DNA of 62,228 bases, counting the filler, from Sluysia triapertura (Eukaryota): the NCBI GenBank assembly GCA_046118255.1. It is 5 parts of 5 records of this genome, joined end to end, with 100 filler letters (N's around TTAATTAATTAA, not from the genome) between each part and the next. Parts side by side here need not be neighbours in the genome. Positions count along the whole stretch, not along the records: positions 10,983 to 26,507 come from JBJNIA010225905.1; positions 26,608 to 38,685 come from JBJNIA010141724.1; positions 38,786 to 51,237 come from JBJNIA010094448.1; positions 51,338 to 62,228 come from JBJNIA010191907.1; 1 more part is not named here. One strand, given 5' to 3'. A program made the translations under genes and the position numbers. Every line of letters starts with the position of its first letter. The first letter of the stretch is position 1. The notes beneath the pieces were generated by a model that was given only the letters and a program-made list of their open reading frames with translations, was not told the DNA's origin and searched no databases. Below, piece after piece: positions 16,151 to 62,228 of this stretch.

Positions 16151-18229
16151 TTTATTTTAATTATCCTTTTTTCTAATTTTATTTTATCTAGAATTCTAAT
16201 GAAATAAATTTTAACTAAGTTTAAAACCCGCAAAATATAGGGATGATTAAATCAAAATTAAAACAGTCCGAAACAAAATACTACAAAACAATGTAAACAT
16301 CAATTTTATAACATGTATAATGGCAAATAAATCTAACATAAAACTGGAACAATAATTTTTTTGTACTTATAAATTTGCCACTTGGATTGCGGTTTAATAT
16401 GTGTGCTTTATTAGAACTTAAAATGACTGACGTTCAATTGAATCTCGACAGTTTAAATCAACCTGAATCGGTTTAAAACGTTGATAAAGTTATGAAATTC
16501 ATCATTAGGTTTCATGTAATAATAATTGTGTCTTAAGTACGGGAATCACTGGTTGGATTATGAACCATTGAATTAAAATCATAACTCATTTGTACCTAAG
16601 AGCATTCACCGAATTGATTGTATTAAATATGTAATTTTTGTTTATTTCACAATTTTTGTCATAATTATACATAAAATACATAAGTAGAATAAAATAATAA
16701 CAATAATACAGGTGGATAATAATAATTAATAATGATAATAATAAATAATAATGATAATAATATCGTACAAATAATAATTTTGAAATAAAACATAATAATT
16801 TGCTATTTACGAAAGTAATTATATAATTTATAAAATTTAAAATAGTGATATAACAATAATATAACTATCCTTTAAAAGCAATGTTGAATTTTAGATAACA
16901 ATGTCGCGAGAATAAGTTAAGTTGTGTTGTGATATTTGACAAATATTTCTGTCTTATGTATGTTATTTCTACAAGGTTGAGTTGAAGTTTGTTTAAATTT
17001 TTTTTGAAAATTATCCTTCAAGGTTGGATTAACCAGACATGTATAAGCTATTTATTTACTTCAAAATCGTGATACGATTCAACGAGTACTACGTTCCGGA
17101 AGTTATGTAATTTGTAGTTACCCGATGAAAATTTTTGAAACCAAATTTTCATCATTTCAAAAATACATTTGCCATTTCTCTTCCATTTCTGTCAACAAGA
17201 TACAAGCTAAAAGAGTTCACGAGTTAAAACCTATAATTTGAATGAACCAATGTTTGTGATAGTTCTGTAAAATTTGTAATATTACATATTTTAAAAATCA
17301 TATTAGGAAACAAATGTTAGACTTAGTGAAATAGTATAGTGAATGCAGAAAATTACATAAAAGGTTGTTATTATTTGCGTCGTGATACTATTTGGTGCTT
17401 TCAGTTTTTCGAATAAATATTAGATATCAATTAAAAATATTTCACGCCTTTATAATAATAATTTTCATCAATAGAATCACTTTAATTGCATATATATATA
17501 TATATATACTGATGCGACTTTATGATTCTCATTTATATATTTTTGCAATAAATTTTTAAAAATTGGGTTAGTTTCATAAAATAAGATAAACTACAAATAT
17601 TTGTATTAATATTATCTTGTAGGATAATGTCTGAGAACTGTGTACAGTAGAATAAAATAAAAGCGAAAACTTAATGTGAGTTCACCAACGTACTGGACTT
17701 GCCAGTTAGGGACAGCGTTGAATTTGGAATCAAGATAAGTGGAGGTTATATAAACTTTGTTAATTGCCTAACTAATGAGCAAACTTCTAATGAGTAGTAT
17801 TTTAATGGGATTTCTGACACTGAAATTTAATTAATATATTTTAATGAGATCCTTAAATTGAACCTTAAAATTTTTAATATAGTGAATTTAATTAGGTTCT
17901 TAAACCGACTATGGACGTGGGTTTAAGGTTATAAACTAAAAAATTGAATTTTAAAAAGATTTTAAGTATTTGTTCAAGTTTTATTCTCTTTAAGGGCTTA
18001 ATTTCATTAGGAACGTCCATTTTTGAAGTTGGTCTAAATTTAATAAAAATAAGGAACATAAAAGAATTTGTTAATTTATCAAAAGAATATGATGATTTAT
18101 ATTGTTTGTTAAAGTCTAGTTCGACCTTATCTGTAAAGTTTGTAATTATCTTTGTAAAATTAATACTTTTCTGTTTAAATATTAAAAAGAAAATAATATC
18201 CAGATTTATTGTGTAATTAGAACTTATAA

Positions 18230-19249
18230 TCACATTAAATTGAAAAAATAATTTGTCCATGACCATAGTCCATGAAACTCCCCGCAATATTTTCTGAAAA
18301 CCCGTCGTTGCATATCATGAATCCGCAGCACTTTAATAATGACTAAAAAATAATTATTTATATACAAAAATTTGCAACTTACATAATTAAATTTGATTAT
18401 AATTACACACATAAATTTACTAGATAACATAACGTGTTCATATAAGAACCAATTGTTGTCATGTTTCTGCATCATTATAGAAATATGTAATATCGACTGA
18501 TAAGGTAATACCCCGTATCCAAAAGACAAATTAACGAGGAAAATTTGAATAAAACTAAGATTATCCAGTGTATTGTTGTACCAACTTGAATCTCTTACGT
18601 TGCTTGCAATTAACTTATGAATAATGCTTTGAGAATATGGTTTCATTGAATTAACTTGAATAAACATTTTGGGTACATCATGATGTTTGAATCTGCAAAA
18701 AGGATCAGCACAATTTCTGTCGACAGTAAAGTAATTTGTTCGAACTTCCAAAATTTCCATATCTACACTTGCATAGCCAATGGTCCGAATTTCCAACACT
18801 TTATCATGGCCATTGGTACATTCCACAACACAAATGTACGAGCAACCATGTGGTTCTGAAAACATTAACTTTGCCAGCGAACCACCTTGTATCCAAACTC
18901 TACACTGAGCAAACGAACACCAAATAAACACAGAGTTGTTGGAATTGAAATCATCAAACGGATGGTTATAAATTGTCTTGATAGTCCATTGATTTTCCAA
19001 ATTCATTATTTGTTGATACTGTATAACATAAATAGAAAATGATGTTACTTGATTGATATGAATGTTACAAATATGTTGAACATTTAAAATATGATACCAT
19101 TTCGGAATTAAATCAGCATATTCCTTCATAGTGTATAAGAAACACATTAATGAGGTTGAAAAGTATTTATTTTCGTAACATTGTCTACTTAATTTCTTTT
19201 TAATAAATACTACATCTTCAGGATTGATATTTTGCTGTGACTGATGCAT
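18230..19249 (-). CDS. 339-aa orphan ORF (gene B) with a partial CCCH-like motif, NCADPFCRFKH
   Basis: Longest ORF in the window, ATG start, intronless, downstream of the palindrome at 19387-19440. Confidence 0.6.
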   Translation of the reverse strand: MHQSQQNINPEDVVFIKKKLSRQCYENKYFSTSLMCFLYTMKEYADLIPKWYHILNVQHICNIHINQVTSFSIYVIQYQQIMNLENQWTIKTIYNHPFDDFNSNNSVFIWCSFAQCRVWIQGGSLAKLMFSEPHGCSYICVVECTNGHDKVLEIRTIGYASVDMEILEVRTNYFTVDRNCADPFCRFKHHDVPKMFIQVNSMKPYSQSIIHKLIASNVRDSSWYNNTLDNLSFIQIFLVNLSFGYGVLPYQSILHISIMMQKHDNNWFLYEHVMLSSKFMCVIIIKFNYVSCKFLYINNYFLVIIKVLRIHDMQRRVFRKYCGEFHGLWSWTNYFFNLM

Positions 19250-19386
19250 TTCTTAAGATTTTGATAAATGATGTAATTTCTAACAACACTACTACTATTA
19301 GAAAAATTTTTAGTCTAGACGTTTGATTTTTAATTGTTTACTAATATTTTTAATTATGTCTGGCTTGTAATTGTTTCTGTTAGACT

Positions 19387-19440
19387 GCCCAATCAGAGTG
19401 TTTTAAAAAATATTGAGAATTATATGGACTCTGATTGGGC
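19387..19440. promoter_or_regulatory. Inverted CCAAT-box pair, putative bidirectional promoter
   Basis: Perfect 13-bp inverted repeat GCCCAATCAGAGT-N28-ACTCTGATTGGGC. Confidence 0.6.
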
Positions 19441-20521
19441 GATGATAAAATTGAATCTTGACGATTGATAACAACACAACTACCGGCATCAGTGATGTCA
19501 TTCTAATGACAATTTTAATCATGTAAATAGTACTGATAACGGCGTAACTAATTTAATGATTTTACACAAAATTATTAAAATTATATTGTATAAATGATAG
19601 CAATAATGATAATAATACGACAATAAGGTTACTGTTATTATTATTGTCAAGAAATAAAAATAAAAATAAAATGCATAAATATTCCTTTTACTAAGAAAAA
19701 CACAAGATCTGTTCTATTATACTCTTTGACTTCTTACATATATAATACATAAAAGAGATAAAACTTGTGAAATATCGTGAAGAAACAACGATAGCGAGGT
19801 ATATGACGTCTCAGTTATCGTTGTTACTTCTTGTTAAGATAATGAATTGTTTAAAGCTGAATTATGTTTATTTCTAGAGATAAAAGCAATGGTTCGAGTT
19901 GTAATTGAAGTGAAGAATGTTAGCATAAATTGTTAAAACTTATTAAAGATTTACAGTTTAAAAACAAGATTTGTGTATTAGATAGAATGATTTGAAATGC
20001 TTGATAAAAGGTTGAAGTTATTTTAATTTTGAATGGTGATTACAAAATAAGTCTTAATATATTATAATGTTATTCCTAGTAAGTATTGAGTATGTGTATG
20101 TGAAGTGTGTTTTGGTTGGTGTAGTTGGTTGAAGGTTTTGATGTAATTGATCTATGTTTCAAGGGTTCTTGTTAGAGTTATTGGATAATGATATTATGCC
20201 TATGGTTTGTGAAATCTATGTTATGGTTGCGATTTGTTTGTTTGGGTATCTGGTGAATGAATGTTGTGAATTATTTGAGGTTAAATGTCAAAGTTTGTTA
20301 TGTTATGGATGGTTGACGTGTTGGTTAAATTGTTGATACATGTGAGTTGATGAGGTGTTGTAATTATCGAATATTATTTTATGATGTTGGTGTTGGTGTA
20401 GTTCGAAAGTAAAAGGTGTGATTATTGTGAAAATTGCATTTTAGTGAAATTTGATTTGTGGATATTAGATTTAGTATTTTGATCGAGTTTAAATTATGAG
20501 TGTTGGCCACTACACTCCAAA

Positions 20522-20860
20522 ATCAATGACATTGATAATGCACTTTTTAAGGCTAGTAGGGGATGGTTCGAAAAGTTTCGTAAAAGAAGTAATATTCATA
20601 ATGTAATTAGACATGGAGAAGCTTCGATTTCAGATCTCCAAGCCGCGGAAATATTTTAAAAAGTGTTTATAGAGTTTATTGCAAATGATGGTTATGTTTC
20701 ACAACAAGTTTTTAATTGTGATGAGACTGGACTTTTTTTGGAAACGAATGCCCAACAGAACCTTTATTACACAGGAAGAAAAATCAATGCTTGGACATAA
20801 GCCGATGAAAGAAAGGCTGACTCTTTTACTATATAGCAATGCAAGCGGAGATGCTAAAGT
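20522..20860 (+). pseudogene. Tigger/pogo (CENP-B-like) DDE transposase remnant
   Basis: FKASRGWFEKFRKRSNIHNVIRHGEA...*...QVFNCDETGLF(+1)WKRMPNRTFITQEEKSMLGHKPMKERLTLLLYSNASGD; one stop and one frameshift. Confidence 0.93.
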
Positions 20861-22578
20861 AAGGATAAAAGGCAAACGAATTCGTATATGAATTCTCTTG
20901 TGCCAGAGTAAAGGTCCCTGAAGATAAAAAAGAATCAATATTAATAGATAAACTAAAATTGATAGGTCCAAAATTAAGGACCTATGTTACATTAATCGAA
21001 GGCAATCAAAGCATTAATAAGTATATTTATGATAAAGATAATATTAATTATGTAAGTAATTAAGGGAATAAAAATATACAGGAGATAAAATCCCATAATT
21101 TATAAAAATAGAAATAAGTATAATTTTGATGATTATAATGATAATAATAGATTTACAAAAAAATTTAGAAATCTCTCAAATTATGATGCACATAAAAATA
21201 ACCTTACTAATTATGATAATAGATATAATATTTATAACAGATATAATAGCCACGTAGAGGTCACTCAAATAGTTTTAAGGGTAATCCAAACAATACGAAT
21301 GATGATAAACGAAATAATAATAAGATTAGGGGTTCAACAATAATAGAATAAGCAAGTATGGTGTATCTAATTATGAACAAAGACCAGCACCGAGTTGGCC
21401 AACTAATTCTAATATTAGCAATCAAAATAACCATAGAAATAGAAATAAAGTCCAAATCGGTATGATAGTAGTTTGAGTAAAGCACAACTAATATAGGAGA
21501 AATATGATATGAAAATTACACAAGAAATTGTATGAAGCTAAAACAAAATCCTAATAGGAAAGTGAGATTTAATGATAATAATAAGAGTGATAAGGAACAA
21601 ATAACTTGAAATCAAACAGATTACTATTTCAGAGATGGCGCCAATGAATACGAAGACGATTATCAATGTGAAGAAAAATCCAGAAGAAATGAGAATATCA
21701 AAAACAAATGATCAAAAGGAGACAAATTAGCAACGATGAAGAAGATGACAAATAATTAAAAATAATAACAGAAGAGAAAATGCAATGTTAAGAAAATTTT
21801 TTATAATTGGATTAGAATGTGATAGAAATCTGTTTATAAATAAGCAAGAAGAAGAACTGTTCATGAGCTATATGCATGACAAATAATTAGATTTCAGGTG
21901 AGATAAACAACGTAGTGGTCAACGGTAATGGAAGATAATCAAATAAAACTAAATCAAATAATTTGGAGTTTCAGTATAGGAATTCTATACAGTTTCTATA
22001 TTTAACTTGACAGCAACTAGTATATACAGGTACTTTGCAGTAAAACTACTTCTTCAATATTCTCGTCATAAGGGGTTTCTTAGAATTTCTTTTGCTGTAT
22101 CAATATTATGGATTGGTTCATTTGCTGTAGCACTTCCAATTACTTTTTGTCTTAAACATCATATCATTAAAGTTTCAGTTGAATTTTTGTACATTTAATA
22201 ATGCAGATTTTATTACTTGGTCATTTATCGGTTAATTTTAAATTCCGCCAATCATAACTATTGTTTTTATTGTGAAATAGTCAAAATAATTCACTAAAGA
22301 GCGTATAATAAAGAAACATCCAAAGCTGTTGAAATTAATAGTGTAAATATAAATCGTCTCAATAGTGATAACAGCAGTAATGATAAAGTAGAATGTGAAA
22401 CAATTACTCGTAAAACTAATAACGAACAAATTAAAGATGATATTGATTGTGATTTTGGTACTAATAAACTAGAAACTATTGTAGAAGAGTAGAGAAGTAC
22501 TAAAACCACTGAAAACTGATAAAACAGAAGTTCCCAAAGATATTCCACGAAATAATGTTAATAACAAAATGTTAACCC

Positions 22579-22732
22579 TGTTGGGGTAAAAAGGCCTAAA
22601 GTGCCATTTGGTAAAATTGACTATAAAATAAAATCGTTAGACGGGGCTGATAGCTCAGTGGTAGAGCAATCGAACTGCGCAACGATGGTCCCGGGTTCGA
22701 TCCCCGGTCAGTCCATTTTACGAAGTCTAACA
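22579..22732 (+). mobile_element. tRNA-containing mini-element, copy 3 (best preserved)
   Basis: TGTT...AACA with an exact 4-bp TSD, ACCC. Confidence 0.88.
22644..22715 (+). ncRNA. tRNA-like Pol III cassette, not a canonical tRNA
   Basis: Acceptor stem GGGCTGA/TCAGTCC plus A, D stem GCTC/GAGC, T stem CCGGG/CCCGG with TTCGATC loop, then TTTT. Anticodon arm is irregular (4-bp stem, enlarged loop). Confidence 0.75.
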
Positions 22733-24272
22733 ACCCCAAATAGAATTTCGGAAGAAATTCAAAAAAACAGTGTTGAGAATCTTACAAAAATAAGTGTAAC
22801 CTCACTTACACTCATTGATCAGGATATTGAATTTAAGCGTGAAAAACTTATTAAAATCGAGAATTCTTTAAATAAAAACATTAATGGAACAGATGACCGT
22901 AAAAATCAATTATTATATGAAGATTGTATTGTTTCTGAGGAAATTAAGAAAGAGCAGTCAGGAAAACCTATTAAGGAAAAAACTCATCAATCTGATGAAA
23001 CATTGGGGAAATTATGAAATTATTAAAGAAGAACACGATAAAACAATCGCAAGTATGATATGAGAGGAAATTGAAAATGAGAAATCTGTAGATAAAATAA
23101 AATGGAATCGATAGAACTGAAATCTAAAGAAAAAGATATTTGCATCGATAATAATAATTTTAAATTTACAAGTTAATTGCTAAAATTCAAAAATCTTAAA
23201 TGAAAATTTAAGTTTAAAATTTAAAAAATCAAAAAAGCAGGATTACATTCACTCTAAAAGTTTATTTTACAATAAATTCTATTATCATAAATAATGACAA
23301 CTGTTTCTTGACATATATGTGAAAATACTATTAACTTCAAAATATAGAAGATTTTGTAAATCATTTTAAAATGTTAAATTTTCTAAATCAAACTCGAACA
23401 TATATTAAAGCACAGCAAAAACTACTAACACGCTAAATTAATGAAACGTTAGAATCACAGTTTTAATTATTTTAAATATTTTTTAGAAAGTGTTTATGTA
23501 AATGTACTTCAATTACTCCATATATTTAACAATTTCGAAATGTATTTTTCATCAAATTATACAATAAAGCTATGAATTTTGTTTCTAATTTAAAATATTT
23601 CACAAAAAACCAGGTGTTTCTTTACACAATTACAGTAAAAATCAACTTTCAATTTTTAATATCAAGCACCTCTTACTTTTATCACATTGCACCAAGTAAA
23701 AGGACAAATCTCTATCATTTTCGAGTAAACGATTCCATTATCAATTTTCTAATTTAGCCACACAATTCTCAGCACCTGTCTTGGTTGGTGCTAAATTTCC
23801 TACACAAATGACAAACTTAATATTCCATTTCCTCTTGATATAATATTATTTTATAAAAACTATTATTTAATGCCATTATTATCAAAACCGAGATCTATTA
23901 ATTATAATAAATTGACATAACAAATAATACTTCTTTCTTGATAAAAGTTGTTATCTTTGTTTTGTCAGGATAATTAATCAAGTCAGGATACAGATAGAAA
24001 TTTAGAATTATAAATTATCTTAACTCAATTAGAACTACTAGTTTTAATGTAATCATTTTATTTAATATTTTCTAACTTAATCAAAACAAAAATTACAATA
24101 AAAAAAATCAAACGCTCATGACAAATTTAATTAATTAATTAATACAAAAAAATTATTTATAAAATTCTTTTAAATAATTTTGATATTAGTTTATAAAAGC
24201 AAAAAATGTAATGAGAAAAGTAATAAGAAAATCTACGTCATTGTAATCATTGTATTTTGTCTATCGATCATA

Positions 24273-24275
<3 letters not shown>

Positions 24276-24328
<53 letters not shown>
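24276..24328. repeat. (AAT)n microsatellite
   Basis: Direct read. Confidence 0.95.
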
Positions 24329-24331
<3 letters not shown>

Positions 24332-25332
24332 TAATACACAAGTAATCTGAAAATAGAAAAATGTATAAGGAAATCAGTTTAAATATTAAAACACAGCATC
24401 AAAATATTCACAGCCAAATATCAAATAAATAATGAGCATTTGAATGCTATATCATAATTATTAAATAAAAATGAAAACAGCAATTAAATTAAAATTAATA
24501 ATTCTACTGCCATTTACAAAAATTCAAACAAAATTGCTTTATAAATTCAACTTTGTTATATGATATAAACAGAAATATAATATCGTCATATAAAGTTAAA
24601 TATCAGTGAATCCGTAATATATATATTATATTTTTATAATTTACACTATTTTAAAACAAAAATTTCTTTGTAATACCAGACATTTTCTTTAATTAAAAAC
24701 TAGAATAAAAACATAATATTTTCTCATCTATAAACACATCCAAAAATCGAGTTTATTCAAAAAATTACCTTTAATATTATTTTTACTTTTGAATTCAATT
24801 TTAATTTCATAGTAATACAAGGAAAATCGAATATTTTTCATTATATAATAAAATCATAATCATTTGCGGTTTTATGTAAACAAGTTGTATGTTTTTTTTA
24901 GTTATTTTAATAATATTTTCTAAATACTTCTTATTTTTACATTCAGAAAATGCAGAATATACTTTAATGATTATTTAAGAACAATTACTTATACCTAAAG
25001 AGTATATATATTATTTCACATAAACAAAACATGGTGAATATAGTACACAATGTGTTTAAATGTTTTAAATGGCAATAAAATTTATATGTCTAGTGAAGTA
25101 CCATTACTTTTTATCTTAAAATTACAATATTAATATTTAATTTCTAATAAAGTTTTATTTCAAATATAGCCTTCATTAATTAATTTGTATTCGATATTGA
25201 TTTCTGAAAATCCAATCTATTTCAGGATTATCATACATTATAAGCATATTAAAACAATTTAGGCAAAAAATAATAAGACCTAAGTGCAATAAAACTTATA
25301 GTTTCCAAAATAAGATTTACCATTACGCTTAC

Positions 25333-25515
25333 TGGATATTTCCATATATATTTTGTATATACTAATATATCCGAGAATAAGAAAAATATTCGCTTTTTAT
25401 CTGTTTTGCGGCATACTTTTATTAGCGTACCTTCACCAACAAGCATTCTTTCGTCATTTAATAGTGGATATTCCTTAAAATCATTACCATCTTCATCGTT
25501 ATCGTCATATGTGCA
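25333..25515 (-). CDS. Exon encoding the N-terminal part of a PLEKHF/Phafin (or FGD)-type PH domain; possibly a fragment
   Basis: cag|...YPLLNDERMLVGEGTLIKVCRKTDKKRIFFLFSDILVYTKYIWKYP|gtaagc, 183 nt, phase 0-0. Resembles the Phafin motif RVLIGEGVLTKxCRKKPKxRQFFLFNDILVY. Confidence 0.7.
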
Positions 25516-25715
25516 CTGGATTATTTTTAAGGAATTAATAAACCAGCTAGAGATAACAACTGATTAATTGTGTTAAGTCTGCGTTTAGTTGAATCTTGCA
25601 TGACATGTACATAATTAACAATTTTGATCCAATCTTTGCATTTGTCGGCTTTCCTCATCTCTTTCCTCTTGATTATTAGAGTTATGTGAACCATCATTAG
25701 AAGGACCATTATCTG

Positions 25716-26272
25716 TTATTGTTGGAGAAATAGGAGATAAAGATTTTCTTGACAAGCTCGATTCATAACCAATATTATAAATGCATTTCTAATTGATAAT
25801 TTTTGCATATTATTTGAATTTGTAAATAAGCGAATGTCACGTCTTAAATTTTTCCATTTATTATAGCAATGTTCTACTGAAAAATCTCCATGTTCATTCA
25901 TTTCTTTACCGATACTAATCCATACTGACTTATGAACTGATTTTCTTTTAAAATCACTAATTCTCTTTTCAATACAATCCAATAATGCATGTACTTGAGA
26001 TGGATTCCAATGAACTTTTTTATTAGAATTTCCTTTCTCATCAGCATTTGGTCTCAATGTATTGCAACTAAAATTTGTCTCAGATTCTGGCGATGATGTA
26101 GATGTTTCATAAATTAATTGCTGTTTTGATTATCTAATTTGACGTCATAATTTACATTCATTTCATTATCTTCGTATTCATCAATATACGTTTCTCCGCC
26201 ACTACTAGTACTCAATTGACTTCTGCGTCTTTTATGGGACGAAATCGACGATACTACGTTTTCATCAACCAT
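25716..26272 (-). CDS. Myb/SANT-like (trihelix/MADF-type) DNA-binding protein; exons 26272-26156 and 26120-25716; 3' part probably frameshifted
   Basis: KVHWNPSQVHALLDCIEKRISDFKRKSVHKSVWISIGKEMNEHGDFSVEHCYNKWKNLRR. A 35-nt GT-AG intron keeps frame with the ATG at 26272. Confidence 0.75.
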
Positions 26273-26507
26273 TGTTAATATTTATTTTACAAATAAAATA
26301 ATTATAATATATTTTTAAATATATTTTAATAAACAATACAGTATTAGATGAATTTTAATAATTAAATTTTATTAATATTACATTTCACTGAGATTTACAC
26401 ATGCATAAATAAATCATAATTCACAAGAAAAATACATCCTATACTTTTAACAGAAAATATAAAAGTCGTGTAACCCCCTTATAATAAAATTGATAACATA
26501 GCTATAA

Positions 26508-26607
26508 NNNNNNNNNNNNNNNNNNNNNNNNNNNNNNNNNNNNNNNNNNNNTTAATTAATTAANNNNNNNNNNNNNNNNNNNNNNNNNNNNNNNNNNNNN
26601 NNNNNNN
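26508..26607. other. Artificial contig linker
   Basis: N44-TTAATTAATTAA-N44. Confidence 0.97.
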
Positions 26608-27099
26608 ATAATATTTAAAAACTATAATTATAATTAATAAACAACTGAGTTTAAAATTCACTAATTTATATTTTATTGTAGAAATGTAAGAACTATTAAG
26701 TTTTATTTAAAAATACATTAGGTGTTTTCGTTTAATTTAACCTTTGAAAACATTAATTAGTTTAATATTTCAATGTCTTTCATTTTTTTCAATTAATCAT
26801 TTGTATTTTATTTTTTAAATCTTTCTAGAAATACTTTCAGAATCATTATTATATTAGATATAATATTTATTTGGTGATTAATTGGTTTTAAAGTTTTAAA
26901 TTTGAATTTTAAATTTAAATTTATAAAGATTTGGTTAAAATTATCTTTATTATTATAAAACAGCAAATAAATTAAATTTATTTATAAATGAAAAGAAAAT
27001 ATCATAATAAAACACAAATTTATTACGGATACATATGGATATAAATTTTATAATAAATGTTATCAAATGTTTTATAATTTTATAATAAATATTATCAAA

Positions 27100-28407
27100 A
27101 GTCTAATGATACGAAGATTTATTAAAGAAATGATCAAAGTAAGATAATTAATTGTATATAATAAAAATAAAAATTTACTTTTGATATTAAATTGTTTCTA
27201 AGAATGTACGGTTCCACATGGTCTTTTGATTGAATCGTGTTGATTGTAAAGTTTCTGTTTGGTTCTTTAAATCTCAATGTTTCGAAGAGCTTATTTATTT
27301 GATCTATATGTTGGATGTAATTGGCGTTTCCAATTCCGCTGTGGTCAATTTCATTGATGCCATGATAATATCTGCATCTTTTACCAAACTTCAGGCATAT
27401 CCCTAATTCAATCGTCTGGGAAGTACACTGTGCTAAACGTTCGCCTTTAACAAAAGTTGAATTTGAACTAATACATGTTGGTCTAGTCATATCTTTTCTT
27501 TGATTATTTGAATGGATAATTGCATTAAATTTGTTCTTTTGTTTGCCTTTATTCAGCATACCTTGTTGCAGTTGGAAAGATAGGATTCCTTTGAGCATTC
27601 GTCACTTTACTTGAGATGATGGGATAATTGTATCATCATCTGTCGTTTCATCATATAAATTAACGTGAATACTATTTCTTACAATTATGGTTTGAACATT
27701 AAACTTAACCGTCCAACATGAAATATTATTTATTGTAAATGATAAATTTCTATGTAACACGGGATGCACTAATTGTACTTCACATTCCCTTCATGTTGCT
27801 CTAAAGATTTATGAATGGGCAAAAACATAACATTTAAAGTTTGTTTGTTGTTTCATCAGTAACATTCTGACTAAAAGTATAAATATGATTAATCATAACG
27901 AATTTAAATTCAGTTTGTTTTACATCTAAAGTTGCATTAATTGCAAATATGATTGTTCCGATATTAACGTAATAGGTAACGTGATTTTGGATACTAATAA
28001 TAAAGATTTCAACTTTATTTGTATTGATGAAGGTAATCTAGAACGACTGCAGTGAGTGTTTCTTTCTAATTTTTTGGAATCATTTGGACATAATCATAAA
28101 ATTTAACAATCCAACATTAAATTAAGAACATTTAACTTATCCCAATCTAAATTTGAATAAATTAATTTCGACTCGCGATCTACCAATGATATTACAAAAT
28201 GTCTTGTATCACTGTGATCTCCACAAATAACCACAACAGTTTCCTCGTCTGGATATACGCGACTTGATAAAATTTTAACAATACTACACTTAATTTTTTG
28301 TAAATCATCATTTACTAAAAAAGCTGTGGTATTATTTTTAATAATTTGATTAAAATCACATGCATTATTTATCATTTTTTGTAACTCTTTCTTTTTCTGG
28401 TTAACAT
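27100..28407 (-). pseudogene. Gene B copy with a TTP/ZFP36-like CCCH finger (27362-27427)
   Basis: ORF pieces 28103-28375 and 27134-27598; CTSQTIELGICLKFGKRCRYYHGINEI. Confidence 0.7.
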
Positions 28408-29262
28408 AATTTTTATAATTGTGAATGGTAATTGTCTAGTCGAATTGTGATTGGGCGTCCTATGAGTAGCAACTATTATAATATAAAAATAGAATTGATT
28501 GGATGTCCAATCACTAACTAGAAAGTATCAATTGGTAGTTATGTTGTGAAAATGAATGCCTGTCACCTCACCATGCAGTAAAAAGGAAATGACAAATGAG
28601 AAATGGTGACAAGTAATTTCAATCCATGTGGCTAGTAACAGCAAAATTCATTTTTGGTAAAAATGTTCTGTCTGGACTGACAGACATAAAATTAATGTAT
28701 ATATTATTGATAATAATTAAATTGATAACAATAAATAATAGTAATAATAATTATTATAATAAAATGGCGATACAATAAGAATAATAGTAATAATAATATA
28801 AAAGTGTAAAAGATAAAAAATAAAATGCATAAACCTTAATCTTTTAATAAAGTTCTCTTTATCTTATTTCTTTATATGAACTTTATTTTCTTAGAACATA
28901 TGAAATCAAATGAAATTTTATTTGAATTAAAATGCTTAGAATTGTTTTAAAGTGTGAGTTTAATGTTTTTCAAGGTGTTAATGATTGAGTGTTGAAGGAT
29001 TGTGAACTTAAAATGTTTCAGATTAATTTTGAATTGTATGTTTGGTAATTTGAGATGTAAACTGTGATTCTAATGTTGTGAAATTACGAAATGTACCTTA
29101 ATATAATATTTAATATATATAATTTTAATGTTATGAGATTGTGGGTTTACAATGCTTTGGAATGTAAAAACAAAAATTTTAATGGACCTGAAAGGTAAGA
29201 TGTGAGATGTTAATAATTGTAATATTCCGTGTAAATAAAGGTTGAAAAGGTTAGCCACCACA
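27100..29262 (-). mobile_element. Divergent gene-pair element, copy 2
   Basis: Terminus CCACCACA at 29255-29262; G/T-rich gene A about 28900-29250; aaaataaaatgcataaa box near 28817; inverted repeat GTGATTGGGCGTCC / GGATGTCCAATCAC at 28447-28514. Confidence 0.6.
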
Positions 29263-31329
29263 ATGAATAAATAAAGTATTACAGAGATTTGTTATAAACT
29301 ATGATGAAGGTGCGTATGTGTGTGTGCATTATAAAATTGAATAAAGAACCGCTATATTTAAAATTGAGGATCAATCTTCCGAATTTATAACGAAATTTTG
29401 TGAAGATGTGTTGTAATAGAAACAAAAATACGCTTGAATATTAAATCGAATGTTTAGGTAATGATCGAATGCCTAAAAGTAGTAAGCTATATTCAAATAA
29501 AAATAATGAAATAAGTAATTTTAAATTTTATAAACAATACATGAATTGTGAGCCATATTCGAAATGAGATATAAAAAACCTGAATAAGTAGTGAGCCACA
29601 TTAAATTCAGAATAATTTAAATTTTATTATATATTAGAAAATTTTGATATGCTAGTGTTTTTAACTATTGCGCAAATTATATAATATTAAAGTTCGCCTA
29701 AGATTAACGGTTTATGCTTAACGCGACGTTCTCGGATGATTTATTGTATTTTAATGAATGTCTATTTGGTTTATTTTCTTATTAATGCAATGTCACTTTA
29801 GGCAATTATTACGTCTTATTAATTTAATGGTTTAATTTCTATTGCTTTAATTATTACAACTCTATATTACTTTTAAAGGTCTACTATCTTTTGATTATCG
29901 CTTTATTAATTTTCTGAAATTCGATCTTTCTTATCCTTCCTTTAGAATTTAACTTTCTATTACTCTTTAACTAAAAACTTTCGTTAAAATTAATGTAATA
30001 TTCTTTCTCTAAATATACAAATTCTCTTTTTCTTTAATTCTTTAAACTACCTTTTACATTAAAATTCTTCAATTTAAATTTACAAGTTAATATCTTTAAT
30101 TCTTATTTTATTTTTCTTTTATCTTCAATTTATCAATAGAATGAAACAAGAATTCAAAACTCCAAAAATGTATTATACAAAATAACTAAGCAATGTCTGT
30201 TGATAATAATGTTCTAACGTTTTATTTAATTTTAACAAAGAAATTGTCTCTAGCGAAACTAGAGATTATTTATAAGAGTTTAAGTATCAATATCATGTCT
30301 CTTAACACAGACAAAAAACTTACAACTATAAACTTACAAAATTTTAGAAAACAAAACTGATCTGGTGAAAAGATTTCTCTCGAATGTTAAATGGAAGTAT
30401 ATAGTGCAACATGATCACTCCGATTAATTAGATTCAGGAATAAAAAACTCGAACGATTCAGAAACACGAACTAATAAAAACTGTCTCGGACAATAATTGA
30501 GTTCAATTACAAAAATCACGAATGTCTAAAAGTGCATGGAGAATAGACCACGACAGAGTAACTAATTTTTGTGGTGAGTTTTATACCTTAAACTCAGCTT
30601 TTTATTCCAAATCAATCATTTACTAATTTTAAAGTTAATTAAAATTAAATGAAGTTTTATTTATTTGTCAAATTTCCTTTTTGTGTTCAGTTAAGTTTAA
30701 TGCTTTTTTGTTTACTTAATTAATTTAAATTTATATTTACACTCATTAAATCAATTAAAGCCGAAGTGAGCTTTGTTTAGTTTATAAATTAATATTTATT
30801 TTTCATTTAGTGAAACCAATTTCATTATTTTTTTTATTTTATAATTCCATCTTACTTTTGATGGTGCACCCTACGGGTACATAAACTGAAGTTGAATAAT
30901 AATCAGAATTTTGTATATTGAAAATTTTATCAATTTTGTATAGAATATCGTATGATGGAAATTTGTATTAAAATTTTACTAAACGTTTTTATATTTATAT
31001 GGACTCTCTCATTTGATATTTAGTTTTATATTAAATTTTTTGAATAATTTATTGGATAATTAATACGAATCATTCAAATATAAATACTAAGGGAAACATC
31101 GTAAGTGCGATAAGTTCAGAAGAATGAGTATTACAGATTAAAATAAAATTAATACGTAACACATATAATAATCTAAATTAATACCGATGTTGCTTAAGAA
31201 AGACTAAAACGCAACGAACATTTTCATTAAACATACGTTTGAGAAAATTTACAAAGCAATAAAAATAAAAATTAAGATAAAATAATAAAATATTGAATTT
31301 TAATAATTATATTTTAAAATTATAATATT

Positions 31330-31620
31330 AGTTTAGATTGGTGTATGATAAGATTTTTGAAGATATAAAGATCGCATAAAGGTTATTGATGATATGAAAG
31401 TGTGTAAGGATGTGAAGATATAATAGTTGCACGTATCTATTGATGTTGTAAAGATTTTCAAAAGTATGTTATGGTTTGTAATTTTGGATAGTTGCGAGTT
31501 AAAATTTACCGTGTAATTAAATATGAGATAATAAAGGAGGGCACTCCTTGTTGCATAATTCTTTATTATAGGCATATACCTTAATGTTAAAAAAACAATT
31601 TTAGACCCTACCACCCATAA
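31330..31620 (+). repeat. G/T-skewed gene-A-like fragment
   Basis: Same compositional skew, preceded by an A-rich spacer and ending in ccaccc. Similarity judged by eye only. Confidence 0.3.

Positions 31621-37091: not shown

Positions 37092-37138
<47 letters not shown>

Positions 37139-38611: not shown

Positions 38612-38614
<3 letters not shown>

Positions 38615-38685
<71 letters not shown>
38615..38685. repeat. (TAT)n microsatellite at a contig end
   Basis: Direct read. Confidence 0.95.
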
Positions 38686-38785: not shown

Positions 38786-39601
38786 GGTGTTATTTGTGCT
38801 TCAAATCTTGTTCCAAAGCCACAAGAAGTCAACGCTGGAACATGGATTTTTTTGGTCCAGATTTTAGGATTCAAACGTGAAATCTCACTTCGACAAGATG
38901 TCCTACAGTATTTTATTATTGACCTTCCTTTTATTATCGTATATTACTTAAAAAAATATTTCAAATTCACTATATTTATGTCTCGAATCTTTTTAAATAT
39001 TAAAATCAGATCAATGTATTATATAGGAGTATCTAATAGTCTAAACTTATTTGAATTATACGTTCTGAGTCAAGACGCTTATGAAACCTTGATCGACGCG
39101 TATAACTACGACCAATGTATACATAGAGCAGTAGTAATTGATATTTCATTAAGACGCTATTTTAAAAAGGATCATATTTTGCCTATAATGGGTAATTTTG
39201 AAATAGACTCTAATAATTTTAGTCAATTCATAGAGTGTGACGACTTAAATTTGAATGTATCGATTACCATTGAAGATTGTGCTAGAGTTCTTCAGTTGGA
39301 TTCAAAAAGTGCAACTCCATTCTGTAGCCCTTTTGTGGGTCATTTTGAGTTGAGTGTTTTCCAAGTAGTTTTTAAAATTTCCAATAGAGTTGTGCAATAT
39401 AATAGTTTAAACTTTAAGGTTTTGTTTACCATATTAGAATTCAGTAAAGACTTTGATTTATGTCTTGATTATTTTAAATTTTCGTTTGAAGGCTTATTTT
39501 TATTATTTATGTTTTGGCGTGCCAAATCCGCTGTCGTATTCCCAATGACTTATGTAACATATGATATCTTATATATAGTTTTGTATTTTTACGTAATCTA
39601 A
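38786..39601 (+). CDS. Orphan open frame of 271 codons, open from the contig edge
   Basis: Stop-free from 38786 to 39601; no recognisable domain. Confidence 0.3.
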   Translation, partial: GVICASNLVPKPQEVNAGTWIFLVQILGFKREISLRQDVLQYFIIDLPFIIVYYLKKYFKFTIFMSRIFLNIKIRSMYYIGVSNSLNLFELYVLSQDAYETLIDAYNYDQCIHRAVVIDISLRRYFKKDHILPIMGNFEIDSNNFSQFIECDDLNLNVSITIEDCARVLQLDSKSATPFCSPFVGHFELSVFQVVFKISNRVVQYNSLNFKVLFTILEFSKDFDLCLDYFKFSFEGLFLLFMFWRAKSAVVFPMTYVTYDILYIVLYFYVI

Positions 39602-55130: not shown

Positions 55131-58100
55131 AAGAAAATTCATAATATTTGAAATGAAAGTCTCACTAACTTTTATCGTGAATATACATCATCTGAGCAGT
55201 AAAATCAGTATATAGTATTTTTTGGAATATATATAAAAATAAAAATTGAAAAATAAAATATAATTATAAAATTAAAATTAATATTACAATTAAAAATAAA
55301 ATAAATTAATGTAAAAATTATAAATTTAATAAAAGAAATTAATAGGTAAATTTTAATTAAAAGTTAATTTTAATAAAAGAAACAAATGTTAACAAAAAAG
55401 GTATTCATTTAACACATTGAGCCCGGAGTCCCTGTTGCTCCGTACTTGAAATTGATACATAAGTTAACAAAAAAAGATAACTGATAATGGCAATGATGAG
55501 GACTGATACAACAAAACAAAATGTTACGTATTTGGTTAATATAATTTATCAAATTAATTTAATTTCCTACGAGATTTTGTGGCTTGGAGTTTTATAATTT
55601 ATGAATTGTGTCGAGTACAATGAATTAATAATGTGTATATTTATTTGGTGTAATATAATTGCTGGTAAATTTAACGGTTAATAATTTAAATATGTTTTAG
55701 TTTAGTGTTTTTGTATTGCGTAAGTTGAAGTAGTGATTTGTAGAATTGTGAGTTGTGTGAATTAATATATGAGAACGACAATGGGATTACCATGCGTTGT
55801 GATGATGATGGTCTTTTCCATTTTTTTAAATTGATTTATTACCTTCTAAAAATTAACCTGTACCTGGCAAATTATATTTCAATATTAAAAGTACATATAA
55901 ATAATTCATAATTGATGTATTAAAACAAACACTAAGTTCCAGCTTATAGAAAGCTTACAGATAATACAATATTGAATAATCAATTTATGAAAATAACAAT
56001 AAATTAACAGAAGAAATAATCTCTTTTTACAACACCCGTCATTACTATATATTATGTATCACTTTTTTATTCTTGTTCGAAAAAAAACAATTTAAAAATT
56101 TCATCGTACTTTGCGAACAAATAAAAATATGTCTTATTGTGTCGAGATTGTAGAGAAGTGATCGTTTTTAAAATTGCCCTTATATCTTAAATACAAATGA
56201 TACAGATTCTGTAAGACCTTATTTTAACGACGTTTGGGAATTCGATAATAATAATAATAACCACCAAGATAAGACCATTTTCTACCTACATATTTCGATA
56301 AATCTGAAACAGAAAGATAAATTTAATCTGTAGTCTAAGTTTTTCGCAATGTCACTAAAATTCTTAGGTTTGAGAACCACGAAACAAATTCCTATACTGG
56401 CTTATTGAAGAGTACCAACAGGAACTATGACCACACGAATGTTTAAGGGCAATGATCACTTCATTTTGTCTGCTTTATCTTTATTGGTGGTTAAAAAAGT
56501 ATGAAATACCTAGCACATCATTTTATTACTATTAAAATTCACAGATTATGCATCTAATATTCTAGTAGTTCGTTCAATATCTTTAACTCGTTTAGGCATT
56601 TAAAATTATTTAAAATACTTTATATATTTAAACATTTTTAAACTGTACACAAAAACAATAAAATAAGATTACAATTGCAAAACAAATGTAGCACAAACAA
56701 CCCTTTTAAACATAAATTAATTGTATTCAAGTTGTATAAGACATTTTGTCTGCTAACTTTCAATAATGTAATCTTTATTGTGCTTGTTGCCCACAACTGT
56801 ACTACATAAGATATATTCGCATATTAATTCGAGGATTCAGAAGATGTTTTCTGATTAATATAATGTATCACAATTGTATATACAGAAGATAATTTTTTAT
56901 TACCGAGTTGGTGAAATAAAGATAGACATTTAAATAAAACATCTAAAACTGTGTTTTCAATCAATATTAATAATAATAAACAGATAACAATGAACAAGAT
57001 TATAGTATGATTGTTGTAGAAGTCATCAGTGTTTCGATTGTTGTACGTATTTTGTTGAGTTTTTAATAGTTGTTAGATTAAGTTGGAGTTTGTTCCACCA
57101 CAACAAACCTAAAGTTTCTCCACGAAATTGCTTTCTATGGTGTTTATGGTCTTGATTTTGTTCTCCAAGGCACATTGTAGCTTCTTTTTTAATTTGAAAT
57201 ATGAAAGATATTGATTAATTTCTGTTGAACAATGCATCGTTATTATTTTAGACTTGAATAATGATTAGAATATTCTTCGAAACCGATTAATGATACATCT
57301 TCGGAAATGACTATTTTTTATTAGTATAATGTTCCAAAAAATAATAGCGGCAAAGCTTAAAAAAGATAAATGAAACTACTTTTGTCTGTATAATTTTTGA
57401 AAATGACAAATTCTATTTGAAATTGTTATTTCAGTTTTTAATAATTTTTGTGTAAACAAATTATTAAAATAAATATTATCCGTTATGTAAATAATCTTTT
57501 GTTATATTGAAATTATACTATTTTATTATGTAAATACAATTGTTTTAATATTAAGGAAGATTTCAATAAGATCAGTATTTAAAAATTGTAATATTAATTT
57601 TTATTATTTTGAGTTGTTAATTCAATGACAGCCAAATTGTTTTTGTCAAATTCGGGTGAACTAATGGCTAACATATTAAGCAGCGCTTGGCATTTGATAC
57701 ACTAATTTGTTCATCTCCTCGAGCAGAACATGCACAAAGTCGTACACGACACAAAAGTTAAAAATAACACAAAAACATAAAATTATTGTTCAGTAATAGA
57801 GTCATCATTGTCGGATATTTTATAAATATCAACATCATCAAATTCATCTTTTTCGAACGCTTTTAGAACGTCTGCTGACTTATACTTCTTGGTTAGTAAA
57901 ATTTAAATTTCCACAACGTAAACAAACAAAATAAACGCTAAAATCTACATGAAAACAACGTTTCCTGCATAAATTATGACATAGGAAGGAAGCAGTTGTG
58001 ATATGTCAAGAAATGTACTCGAAAGTTTTGCTGAAAAACTGTTACTTTTACAATAATTAATCATATTTCTATATAAAACTTAATATTTTGTGCTGCAATA

Positions 58101-58379
58101 TTTTAATTCAATAATACAGTGTTAATAGCTTTATTTTCAAAGTACATATGATAAAATATAAAGTTTATTTTGAAAAAAAAACCAAAAGATTAATTATTTC
58201 TAGCAAGCAAAAAAAAAATTATATTATTAAAATTTTTTCATTCATTTATAGATATTGTTTTTCAAAGTCAAGTACTTTTATTTAAATTATGTATTTATTG
58301 TTTAATCCGACTAAAGCGATGATGTAATTGCTTTTAGAAATGAACAATTCTTCAGTCATTTTTGTCATTCGAAAAGCAA

Positions 58380-58620
58380 GAACGAACTGTACTTTCAAAA
58401 GGTGTATTGTTAAATGATCTAAAATTTACAATGTTTTGAAGGTTTTAAGATATAGAGTGTAAGAAATGGTGTGAAATGTTTAAGGATTATATGATTTAGA
58501 CTGGGAATTATATTACGAATAATATTAACTTTGACAAAATGTGATATTTCAATAATAAGGTTAGTTATAACTTGTATAAATTTTTGATTTATTTCTAAAA
58601 TATCATATTTTTTAATTTGA
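58380..58620 (+). repeat. Gene-A-like fragment in the GPCR intron
   Basis: Reverse complement caatacaccttttgaaagtac resembles 51981 caattacctttttagaatgtac and 61604 caaccaccttttcaacgtac. Confidence 0.4.
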
Positions 58621-58678
58621 TTCGATAATTTTATTATATTCATTCTTTAATTGGTAATATATTAAAATTAAAACTTAC

Positions 58679-59162
58679 CAGATAATGTCCAAGCAATTCC
58701 TATCATTACAGCACATCGTTTACGACTAATTCCATAAGTTAAAGGACTTCGAGTAGCCCAATAACGTTCTAATGCTATCATACATAAATGTAAAATGCTA
58801 GCTGTTGAACTTAACACATCGAAAGCATGCCATAAATCACACCACAATTTTCCAAATATCCACTTACCTTCACTTAATTCACTGAAAACAGCAAAAGGCA
58901 TAACAATGAGACCCATTAATAGATCAGCACAAGCCAATGAAACAATGAAAAAGTTGGTTATACTTCTTAATTGACGATATAATACCACTGCTGTTATAAC
59001 TAATAAATTTCCACAAATTGTAGTACACAACAATAAACTAAGAAATCCACCTAATAATACATTAGAAGTACTGAATTTTATGATATTTGTTATTAACTTT
59101 GTCGTATTATTAATATCAGATATCGGATTTGTTGGATGGTAAATTATTGGAACAGTGGCCAT
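58679..59162 (-). CDS. Biogenic-amine class A GPCR (invertebrate dopamine Dop1R2/octopamine-like), first exon, TM1 to TM4
   Basis: GNLLVI, TNFFIVSLACADLLMGLIVMPF, WIFGKLWCDLWHAFDVLSSTASILHLCMIALERYWA (TM3 Asp present). Donor G|GTAAGT at 58678. Confidence 0.93.
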
Positions 59163-59692
59163 GATTGCGATTTGTTTATAAAGTTTTCAATAATAGACAT
59201 AATTTATAAATCACTAAATCAACAACACAAAAAAAACAAAGAAAAACAATACAAATTAAAGATGATCTTTATTGAATAAAAATTTCAATCAAATATTACT
59301 GATAATTTGCTTTAACCAATTAAATTTGTAATATCAAATTAACAAATCAGATTAAGAAAAATTCATTATTTTTACTTTTTATATTATTATTATTACTATT
59401 ATTAAATAAACATGGAATGGCTACTGGATTTCGGACAAAAAATGGCCACTAATGAGTTAATAATACAAATTGTAATAGTATTATAATCGATTCTGTGAAG
59501 AAAAATTCAGAAATTACAGTTAATATTGAATCAATCAGTAAAACTAACCTTTCAATTACGAAACACCTTAAAATTATGTACCGTTTATATTTCAAAAATA
59601 AACAAACTACCTGAGAATGTTAAAAACTTTAAACAGTTTTAAAATATATATATATATAATTAAAATTGCAGAAAGGACCTACCGAAAATTAC

Positions 59693-59807
59693 TGTTAAAT
59701 GGACAGACCGGGATTTGAACCCAGACTTCCTTACCTTACAGCTGTACAGTTCGATGCTCTGACCACTAAGCTATCAGACCCGTCAATTATACTATCGTTA
59801 TTCAACA
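59693..59807 (-). mobile_element. tRNA-containing mini-element, copy 4 (115-bp subfamily)
   Basis: Minus strand: TGTTGAATAACGATAGTATAATTGACGGGTCTGATAGCTTAGTGGTCAGAGC...GGGTTCAAATCCCGGTCTGTCCATTTAACA. Exact 5-bp TSD ATTAC (59688-59692 / 59808-59812). Confidence 0.85.
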
Positions 59808-61181
59808 ATTACAAAATGTGAATATTTATTAACAAACTTTGGAAGAGACAAAAAATTAATGTCTTAAAAACTTCGCAATAGCGCAAGTGTTTTCTCATAA
59901 AATTTGTGTTTAGTGTTTAGATGTCTACATGCCAATTTAGTTACATTCAATTTCTAATTACTATTGATTCATTTTATTAAAATATTTTCTTTAGGATATA
60001 TACTTAGTTTGACTATATAATCGAACCTTTCGTTCTGGATTACTCTATTTTATTCAATAAACTCACAAAAATAGTAAAATATAAAATATAACAAATTTTG
60101 AATAATTATAAAATAAAATTGATTAAATTATTATGAACTTTCTCATTAATAATAATTAAATTTTATTCAAAATTTTAATGCTAGATTTTAATTCTAGCCC
60201 AAATTAATTTATTTTAATTTATTTGAGAAAAAAAATCCCAACAAATAACTTACGATTTTATTACTAATCAGTAGAATCAAAATGGAATATAACAACACGT
60301 AAATAGCAAATGGTAATATCGATTTCATGTTTATTCTTCAATTGATAGATGATTTAATAATAGGCCGAGTTTATATATTTTCATTTTCTCTTCTTTCTGC
60401 TTGTGTCAGACTAAAGCTACGTACATACTTATATACTTATATACGCTTATAATAATATTTAATTATTTTTGATTATAGGCGTTATGTCTAAATGTAAATT
60501 AAAATAATTGTTATTTTTATACATATTACTATTATGTACAATATATTATTTTTTATACTTACAATAATAAATTAAATAAAATTAATTGTAAATAATTTAA
60601 AAATTAAATATTTAAATTTCGAAATGCTTCCGTTTTAAAAATGTAAAAAAATCAGCTCATACAATAATAACTAATCTTTTTACGAAAAAGATATAAAAAG
60701 TCTGCAAGATCAATCAAAATTTAATAAGCATCATCAAATTTTGGTGAACAAATGTTAATCATAGTTAATTGTGAGTGTCGGACGACTTATTTGGATAATC
60801 ATCGTCGGGACTTTGAAATCATTTTGCCGTTTTTTGATACAGTGAGTTTTGTTTGGTAAGTTAAGACCTAAAATAGACTTAATTACAAAATTTTTGTGTA
60901 CACTGAATATTTCAAAATACAATTAGATTTTGTTGTGTAGTGATGTATTCGTATTGAGTTAGTTTTATTAATATACTTTGCAATCTTCCTCATTATTCTA
61001 TATGAAAGTAAAGTAAGAAAATACAATAGGTTTAAAACATAAACGATAGAGATTTTGATACATAGTACAAAAAGATAGAGAAATATTTAAGGAAAACGAA
61101 TTAGTAAGTGTTTAAAATCTTGCAAACTCCTATAGGAAGGTTTCCAATAAAGGTATAAATCGTCCACCATAGGTAAACCCA

Positions 61182-61969
61182 TATGGTGATCAACCTAGCA
61201 CTTTGAGAATTTTATCTCCTTTACATTCACTAAAACATTATTTTAACCTTATGAAAACAATCCTATTTCATAACTTTACAATATCAAAATTACATTTCTT
61301 AACACTACACAACAACCTTTTAGAATTTGTCAAAACCGTTTCTATATTTTATCCTTTTCATCCACTAAAATCAATTTAAATCCACAATCTCGTAACATTC
61401 AAACCATAATGATATTTAAAACCATCAATTTTCATTAAAAAATTCATCTAAAATATTTTATTCTTCAATTCATAACAATTCAAGTTCAACCACATCCGAA
61501 ATTAACTACTAGACACTTTCATATCAATTCATAATTCTTTATCATTTAATCCCTAACATTACTTAAAATTATCAAGAAAATAAATCACATTTTCAACATT
61601 GTACAACCACCTTTTCAACGTACCAAAAGCTAAACTATAACTTATCTTCTTTTCATCCACTAAACTACTCTCTTTCAACATATTTGTAACCCATACTCTA
61701 CCAACATCTAAACGTTATTTCATTCAGAACATTAATGTTTATTTAAAATCCACGTAAAACATTTATATCATTTCAAAATACCTAAATCGCAACTTTTTAA
61801 CATCATAACATTCAATCTTCAGACATCTTTAAAGACATTTAACTATTTTAAATAGATCTAAATATGTTCAGAATAAATAAAGAAATCAAAAGCAAGATCG
61901 TCTTACTTAAGACAAATAAAGAATTTATGCATTAATAATAATAATAACAACAATAATAATAATATTGCC

Positions 61970-62007
<38 letters not shown>

Positions 62008-62111
62008 ATTTTATTTTCATTATTTTAATTTTTAAAATTTTATTTTGTCATTAAACCAATAATTACCACTATCAATGTTGACATTGTTGGTCACTATGTA
62101 CAAATTCTCAT
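61182..62111 (+). mobile_element. Divergent gene-pair element, copy 4 (gene A plus spacer)
   Basis: 61600-61830 is collinear with 51980-52210; tttatgcatt box at 61924; spacer actatcaat..tgacatt..tatgtaca shared with 52520-52560. Confidence 0.7.
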
Positions 62112-62228
62112 TGTAGTGGCCAAGACCCATAATTTAAAATTCACTGAAAAAATTATAACACTCAAATCACAATCACATTCAACATTACCAAACTACAACA
62201 ACTAGTTCATAAAAAACATAACATCTAA
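62112..62228 (+). mobile_element. Terminus of a further element copy, truncated by the window end
   Basis: TGTAGTGGCCAAgacccATAATTTAAA.. matches the reverse complement of 20380-20514 (TGTAGTGGCCAAcactcATAATTTAAA..). Confidence 0.75.

Follow-up and report, generated by a model that had tools for sequence, protein, structure and literature searches.

Five contigs of Sluysia triapertura (GCA_046118255.1), joined by N spacers into a window of 62,228 nucleotides (nt) with a GC content of 26% (AT 74%), contain a repeat family that is real and has sharp, non-random ends. The long copies carry cargo inward of an inverted CCAAT motif, and this cargo appears, from its protein matches, to be captured host sequence that differs among copies. 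A piece of the proteasome adaptor ECM29 is present in copy 2 and a piece of the CCA-adding enzyme TRNT1 in copy 3. The chances are about even that the family is a non-autonomous Gypsy-type element, seen here as its long terminal repeat (LTR) or an LTR-proximal part and possibly Burro-like, which captured host mRNAs by template switching. Feature coordinates are given in Table 1.

Termini and non-coding part of the repeat

Exact TGTRGTGG ends occur at 20514, 29262, and 57102 on the minus strand and at 51397 and 62112 on the plus strand. These five matches compare with a shuffle mean of 0.94, and none of 100 shuffles reached five. A sixth end at 61182 (TATGGTGATC) is decayed. The ends are spread over three contigs, and all six termini listed in an earlier note on this DNA stand. 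Between copies 1 and 5 the similarity begins precisely at the first T of TGT, with unrelated flanks and 26 of the first 30 nucleotides identical. The ends are sharp, and read depth drops just outside 20514. The sequence of copy 4 matches copy 3 as far as the copy 5 junction. No match to the terminal patterns was found in metagenome and viral contigs; three further loci were dropped, being chance hits on the antisense strand of genes for bacterial signal peptidases.

The read depth was obtained from public runs, which cover copy 1 only. In run X1, single-copy contigs have a depth of 12–22. The summed depth, which is not a copy number, is 9,783–73,755 in bins 19712–20647 (20,241–73,755 from 19946 to 20647) and 357 in the next bin outside 20514, a fall of about 50-fold or greater. 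It is 779–9,783 across the box, tract, and CCAAT motif of copy 1, and 146–697 in the bins of its open reading frame (ORF), where one contig has a depth of 90. In qualitative terms, the terminal 0.6 kb stands out as highly abundant, and the copy 1 cargo is repeated yet far rarer. One X2 contig stops at 20514. Since X1 may be the source sample, and X2 and X3, which contain a small share, show the same profile much more shallowly, no run gives independent support.

Region A, the sequence behind the ends that the earlier note called gene A, is probably non-coding. Stop triplets on the G-rich strand of copies 1–4 are at the shuffle level, and no frame is open for more than 64 codons. On the terminus strand, stop triplets lie 1–2 standard deviations under the shuffles in each copy. 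Copies 3 and 4 are 72% identical over 315 nt of region A; 8 of the 10 gaps in this alignment are not multiples of three, and the mismatches show no third-position bias. Short ORFs gave no Pfam match among the 76 of 98 sent (the remainder were low-complexity or scanned before). Because of these shuffle-level stops, frame-breaking gaps, and the lack of codon bias and Pfam matches, gene A is probably no gene; a slight chance is left for an old decayed one. A leucine-rich-repeat reading of region A, made by eye, was rejected, given the missing coding signal, the frame-breaking gaps, and the lack of Pfam matches.

The strand skew reported for this region is present behind four of the five ends measured (C over G, 0.38–0.61 in copies 1–4) and absent from the first 800 nt of the 57102 arm (0.0). 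Alignments of region A exceed local shuffles within two sets only, copies 2, 3, and 4 on the one hand and copies 1 and 5 on the other. None did so for copy 1 against copies 2, 3, or 4, or for the 57102 arm against all four copies tested. Region A of copy 4 contains an internal duplication of about 250 nt.

Inward of region A lie a TTTATGCATT box, an AAT-rich spacer, and the inverted CCAAT motif. The box is found at 19679, 28833, and 61924, each time on the terminus strand and 0.43–0.84 kb inside an end. Its conservation holds for place and strand in all three cases; its count alone is weak (mean of 0.98 expected, three reached by 7 of 100 shuffles). Copy 3 has a variant box, TTTATGAATT, at 52416, 1.0 kb inside its end. 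The AAT-rich spacer and the inverted CCAAT motif are present as first described, the latter with three matches to CCAAYCAGAGT against 0.01 expected. The arms of the motif are perfect over 13 bp (copy 1), 10 bp (copy 3), and 8 bp (copy 2), and its sequence is promoter-like, although the promoter-like regions as wholes gave no alignment above shuffles. Since this motif is held in common, copy 1 is linked to the other copies despite its non-aligning region A. The conserved order that had been claimed persists as a shared architecture, and the sequence of region A is shared only within copies 2, 3, and 4 and within copies 1 and 5. The element gave no match to hammerhead or other structured RNAs.

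The AAT tract itself is an inverted repeat of (AAT)n followed by (ATT)n at 61927–62024 and also at 52433–52500, with arms of 38 nt and 89% identity in copy 4. At 41359–41520, a spacer-like AAT tract carries TTATGCAT on its minus strand. It has no terminus or skewed tract close by and is probably a host intron microsatellite.

Captured host-gene fragments

The copy 2 frame from 28435 to 27137, read with X at the stops, matched three proteins at E 0.001 among 1.84 billion, and all three are ECM29. The best match has an E of 1.8e-28 and 42% identity over residues 2–159 (158 amino acids), and a further search gave E 1.7e-33. Past about 160 amino acids the ECM29 match has no support; another frame of the copy 2 middle gave one match at E 1.4. 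The copy 3 frame from 52792 to 53388 matched the human CCA-adding enzyme over 133 residues with E 3.5e-12. Each of the two firmly identified pieces is part of a host gene, lies in sense orientation, and begins no more than about 0.3 kb from the CCAAT motif. In all three long copies (1, 2, and 3) an ORF begins within about 0.15 kb of that motif and heads away from the end.

Downstream of their differing cargo, copies 2 and 3 have a CCCH segment in common. Their finger segments align with a score reached by none of 1000 shuffles. Copy 1 and ORF C gave no alignment to the finger segment (340 and 644 of 1000 shuffles reach the score, respectively). The earlier note had described a divergent pair of orphan genes, A and B, and this description is replaced by an apparently non-coding region A and, as gene B, ECM29 and TRNT1 fragments placed before a shared CCCH-like finger. 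A ribokinase-like stretch between TRNT1 and the copy 3 finger matched at chance level, no better than two other chance-level NCBIfam matches.

For the 339-codon frame of copy 1, the chance of such an open run is about 2e-13. No relative of this ORF was found among 248 near-length and 190 longer candidates, and an exact look-up gave no match. A PDB sequence search returned nothing for it and one match at E 1.3 for the second ORF. In Pfam, the copy 1 ORF matched only PRE_C2HC, at E 0.0027 and under the cut-off. Single-sequence folds of the copy 1 cargo (predicted local distance difference test values of 34.8 and 38.9, unusable) gave no match at E 0.001.

An ordinary host gene family is unsupported, as the fragments bear stops, are fused to unrelated segments, and lie beside a repeat at about a thousandfold above single-copy depth. 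It was also considered that the fragments are processed pseudogenes made by long interspersed nuclear elements (LINEs), or DNA rearrangements, that fell by chance beside a common short repeat, with only the terminal 0.4–1.1 kb belonging to one family. The cargo does vary by copy, region A of copy 1 cannot be aligned to copies 2–4, and the promoter-like regions likewise do not align as wholes. The closeness of the ORFs to the CCAAT motif and their direction away from the end in the three long copies speak against chance, as do the CCCH segment common to copies 2 and 3 and the multi-copy cargo of copy 1, and we regard this explanation as improbable.

Introns bear on the route of capture. No intron-sized insertion interrupts the ECM29 piece (474 nt) or the TRNT1 piece (399 nt). 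The latter corresponds to human residues 105–236, using an offset of 41 that was counted by hand on the alignment with p.Arg190 and p.Ile223 as anchors (PMC4930608). Human TRNT1 has splice donors at c.342 (PMC4930608) and c.608 (PMC7312816), and the piece bridges both sites. The bridging by the TRNT1 piece and the lack of intron-sized insertions in both partial pieces favor capture from host mRNA, with intron loss judged from the human intron positions; the short, close introns of the host HSF gene (below) point the same way.

Table 1. Position and strand of the features of the repeat copies and their cargo.
Feature	Position	Strand	Remark
Copy 1 cargo: 339-amino-acid ORF and overlapping 140-amino-acid ORF in another frame	17892–19249	-	Multi-copy
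Copy 1 inverted CCAATCAGAGT motif	19387–19440	.	13-bp perfect arms
Copy 1 TTTATGCATT box and AAT-rich tract	19545–19679	-	
Copy 1 region A	19680–20514	-	C/A-rich, G-poor, apparently non-coding; part with the highest copy level
Copy 1 terminus TGTAGTGG	20507–20514	-	Adjoins a Tc5/Tigger transposase fragment
Copy 2 CCCH-like zinc finger	27350–27433	-	zf-CCCH_UNK E 0.0015–0.0046, under the Pfam cut-off
Copy 2 cargo: ECM29 N-terminal domain fragment	27959–28432	-	Single frame with two stops; intron-sized insertions absent
Copy 2 inverted CCAAT motifs	28447–28514	.	
Copy 2 terminus TGTGGTGG, short region A, and box	28824–29262	-	
Copy 3 terminus, region A, and variant box	51397–52425	+	
Copy 3 inverted CCAACCAGAGT motif	52637–52698	.	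Paired position differs from copy 1 in both arms
Copy 3 cargo: TRNT1 fragment	52981–53379	+	One frame, one stop, single one-residue gap
Copy 3 possible second captured piece, ribokinase-like	53529–53840	+	Not significant: E 1.1, 0.053, 0.53 (fifth of 6 matches)
Copy 3 decayed CCCH-like finger	53856–53954	+	zf-CCCH_UNK E 0.016, under the cut-off; homologous to the copy 2 finger
Broken ORF C	54480–55190	-	Convergent with copy 3 cargo; best E 0.19
Terminus facing copy 3	57090–57102	-	12/13 nt identical to copy 3 end; no target-site duplication
Copy 4: decayed terminus, region A, box, AAT tract	61182–62111	+	Interrupted by copy 5
Copy 5, copy 1 type	62112–62228	+	Nested inside copy 4; cut by the contig end

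Origin of the element

Under the Gypsy-type reading, reverse transcriptase and integrase would come from an autonomous partner at another genomic site, and the integrase would recognize the TGT end. During reverse transcription of an RNA intermediate, a template switch to co-packaged host mRNAs would take up spliced sense fragments such as those of ECM29 and TRNT1 and set them before the older CCCH-finger segment of the element. The chimeras would be transcribed from the CCAAT palindrome and re-amplified in trans, with pieces near the end building up far more copies.

Both end types fit TGTNR, a pattern given for Gypsy LTRs and for the terminal inverted repeats (TIRs) of Ginger alike (PMC2836005). 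Gypsy-type elements have TG...CA ends with a short inverted att site; here TGTRG stands at five ends, and a matching inverted end of 13 nt would exist only if 51397 and 57102 form one unit. On the G-rich strand, AATAAA stands ahead of a GT-rich tract and then ACA in two of four copies, AATAAA being common at 74% AT; a described LTR pattern has AATAAA and then a GT-rich stretch ahead of the 3’ end (PMC3601003). If the G-rich strand is the LTR sense strand, the cargo would be antisense, as in Retand. Sense capture by template switching calls for the orientation opposite to that given by the AATAAA and GT-rich order. No enzyme gene (gag/pol or transposase) was found in the scanned ORFs of the element within the window, which, with the integrase-type end, fits the cargo-carrying non-autonomous element first proposed.

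Several observations weigh against the Gypsy-type reading. No second LTR, polypurine tract, or gag/pol remnant was found in the window, and no primer-binding site was seen between the promoter-like motif and the cargo by eye inspection alone. TGG follows one of the six ends (the decayed 61182), and a purine tract precedes none of them; outer ends would show neither. No long direct repeat bounds a unit within a contig, the contigs being short and the other copies cut. For 51397 and 57102, the sole facing pair, no target-site duplication (TSD) of 3–10 bp was found with either left end tried; LTRs of Gypsy-type elements, paired or solo, are flanked by a TSD of 4–6 bp. Intron loss rests on human positions and not on triclad loci, and host exons of 400–500 nt exist. 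A 117-nt in-frame GT..AG stretch (52870–52986) stands right before the TRNT1 match and may be a retained intron. The searches did not find a parent gene for the copy 1 cargo or for ORF C. The depth declines gradually inward, as is equally expected for Pack-TIR elements.

Such a Pack-TIR origin is the main alternative, a tentative and somewhat doubtful one. It would make the family a non-autonomous integrase-type DNA transposon (Ginger1/2 or IS3EU/GingerRoot) that took up host DNA by gap repair or fork switching, and 51397–57102 a single 5.7-kb element with inward promoters and convergent cargo. The terminus at 57102 may be the far end of this unit or may belong to a separate copy. The facing ends have TGTNR termini and share 12 of 13 nt, equal to copies 1 and 5 and above every other pair, and between them lie convergent ORFs and a second G-rich stretch (about 55450–55900). 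GingerRoot often carries gene fragments and loses its transposase (PMC6839031), and Pack-TIRs are known in animals (PMC8277862). Integrase-type TG/TA ends, fragments of one or more genes, and transposase loss are likewise described for GingerRoot/IS3EU and animal Pack-TIRs (PMC6839031, PMC8277862, PMC10045372), and the 2.6–7 kb size range of Ginger1 and Ginger2 covers 5.7 kb (PMC2836005). Ginger2 favors AT-rich targets (PMC2836005).

The likeness of the facing ends, however, stops after 13 nt (17 of the first 30), and no long TIR was found in the window. By description, Ginger1 and Ginger2 have TIRs of 40–270 bp, a 4-bp TSD, and a transposase (PMC2836005), and GingerRoot/IS3EU has TIRs of 100–150 bp, a 6-bp TSD, and intron-containing cargo (PMC6839031, PMC10045372); none of these was found here, including introns inside the ECM29 and TRNT1 matches. 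The 57102 arm does not align to region A. With a 13-nt likeness and no TSD, the pair therefore falls outside Ginger and GingerRoot as defined, and a solo LTR is unproven.

The earlier note had also offered an accessory region of a giant retroelement, which is a possible reading, and an endogenous virus segment, for which no support was found. Polintons and endogenous DNA viruses are recognized by PolB, capsid, ATPase, or protease genes and by long TIRs. Genes do run inward here from short inverted ends, and the skew could reflect strand-displacement replication. No PolB, capsid, ATPase, or protease match was obtained in the scanned ORFs of the window, no exact terminal match in viral contigs, and neither a long TIR nor a 6-bp TSD. 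It is very improbable that the family is the accessory end of a Polinton-like element or of an endogenous DNA virus that took up host genes.

Capture as such has close parallels under the Gypsy-type reading. LTR-mediated retrocopies are partial, may join two genes, and are re-mobilized (Tan et al. 2016, PMC5131818). As the cargo described here seems to be, they are intronless pieces of host genes in the sense direction, at times with several genes joined, and are re-amplified non-autonomously (PMC5131818). Their cargo replaces internal gag/pol between LTR pieces, whereas no gag/pol, primer-binding site, or second LTR was seen here and the cargo occupies one slot between the shared promoter-like motif and the shared CCCH segment. 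LTR-adjacent accessory ORFs on the opposite strand are a feature of the plant Gypsy lineage Retand and would be matched here provided that the G-rich strand is sense (PMC11963269). Retand belongs to plants, and its ORFs have a TRP28 domain and are not host-gene fragments (PMC11963269). The ends of Troyka are CG (PMC12440569) and are not used as evidence.

A link between the element and Burro is possible. Burro LTRs are said to contain an AAT repeat. Planarians carry giant Gypsy elements of the Burro/GYPSM1 type with accessory ORFs (PMC6431247). By description only, these resemble the present element in their triclad-type host, accessory ORFs, and host-like domains (PMC6431247). The domains named for Burro (MATH, BIR, BCL2, ankyrin, midasin, SUMO, dUTPase, and env) do not include ECM29, TRNT1, or CCCH (PMC6431247).

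Gene capture by integrase-ended elements is already known, and transposon gene capture is well documented for plants, flies, and vertebrates. No report of it in planarians was found in the searched literature, from which subscription journals and Repbase lay apart; a giant-transposon review alone was relevant. What is unusual is the fixed slot, running from a palindromic promoter-like motif to a CCCH tail and refilled with different housekeeping fragments. The literature searched gave no description of such a slot architecture, and repeat libraries in planarian genome supplements may hold the family. It is conceivable, though unlikely, that this is an undescribed triclad element in which a slot between a fixed promoter and a fixed CCCH RNA-binding tail takes up one housekeeping mRNA piece after another (from the tRNA CCA-adding enzyme, the proteasome adaptor, and perhaps ribokinase), with the chimeric proteins kept open by selection and amplified as a genome-wide exon-shuffling device or as host-modulating accessory genes.

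A different host fragment occupies the same slot in two of the three long copies of a 62-kb sample, which suggests that host-gene capture is routine for this repeat family. If so, the family would be a source of chimeric ORFs and of false orphan genes in annotation, possibly a source of PIWI-interacting RNAs that target housekeeping genes in a lineage used as a stem-cell model, and a testable route by which Burro-type elements acquired host-like domains.

Host and neighboring sequence

A receptor exon and very short introns mark the host as a flatworm, probably a triclad. The G protein-coupled receptor exon at 58671–59159 has 67% identity to GCR001 of Schmidtea mediterranea, and further flatworm proteins follow closely among 48 matches. 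The HSF host gene (13380–14003) has introns of 36 and 41 nt, both inside 200 nt. Further host exons are of the Myb/SANT (MADF-like) and PH-domain types (25252–26129). Exons at 45700–45900 and 47558–47962 are immunoglobulin-domain-like by eye, the latter without a Pfam match.

Just beyond the copy 1 end, the Tc5/Tigger fragment matches HTH_Tnp_Tc5 at E 1.5e-4. Of the 69 plus-strand ORFs left of copy 1, 51 were searched for the other half of this Tigger element without finding it. TCAT precedes two of the five exact ends (29263–29266 and 62108–62111); the three others differ. At 61161–61192, a short hairpin is formed by two decayed ends in head-to-head order, TATGGTGGAC at 61171 (minus strand) and TATGGTGATC at 61182 (plus strand). 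The minus end is by eye like the first 25 nt of copy 3, its arm alignment not being above shuffles. This arrangement could be an end-to-end junction.

Other repeats are also present. Short, very high-copy repeats lie at 15500–15850 and 17666–17716, with summed depths of about 72,000 and 78,000, and the latter has loose ends on either side, about 50 nt apart. A tRNA-derived repeat resembling a short interspersed nuclear element has three copies (12046–12203, 12671–12819, and 22579–22733) with 81–89% identity, and another tRNA-like sequence is found at 59700–59780. A plus-strand ORF of 271 amino acids without a Pfam match spans 38786–39600; the minus strand of this stretch, by eye only, presumably resembles a decayed LINE endonuclease. 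A tandem duplication of 155 nt is located at 45381–45681.

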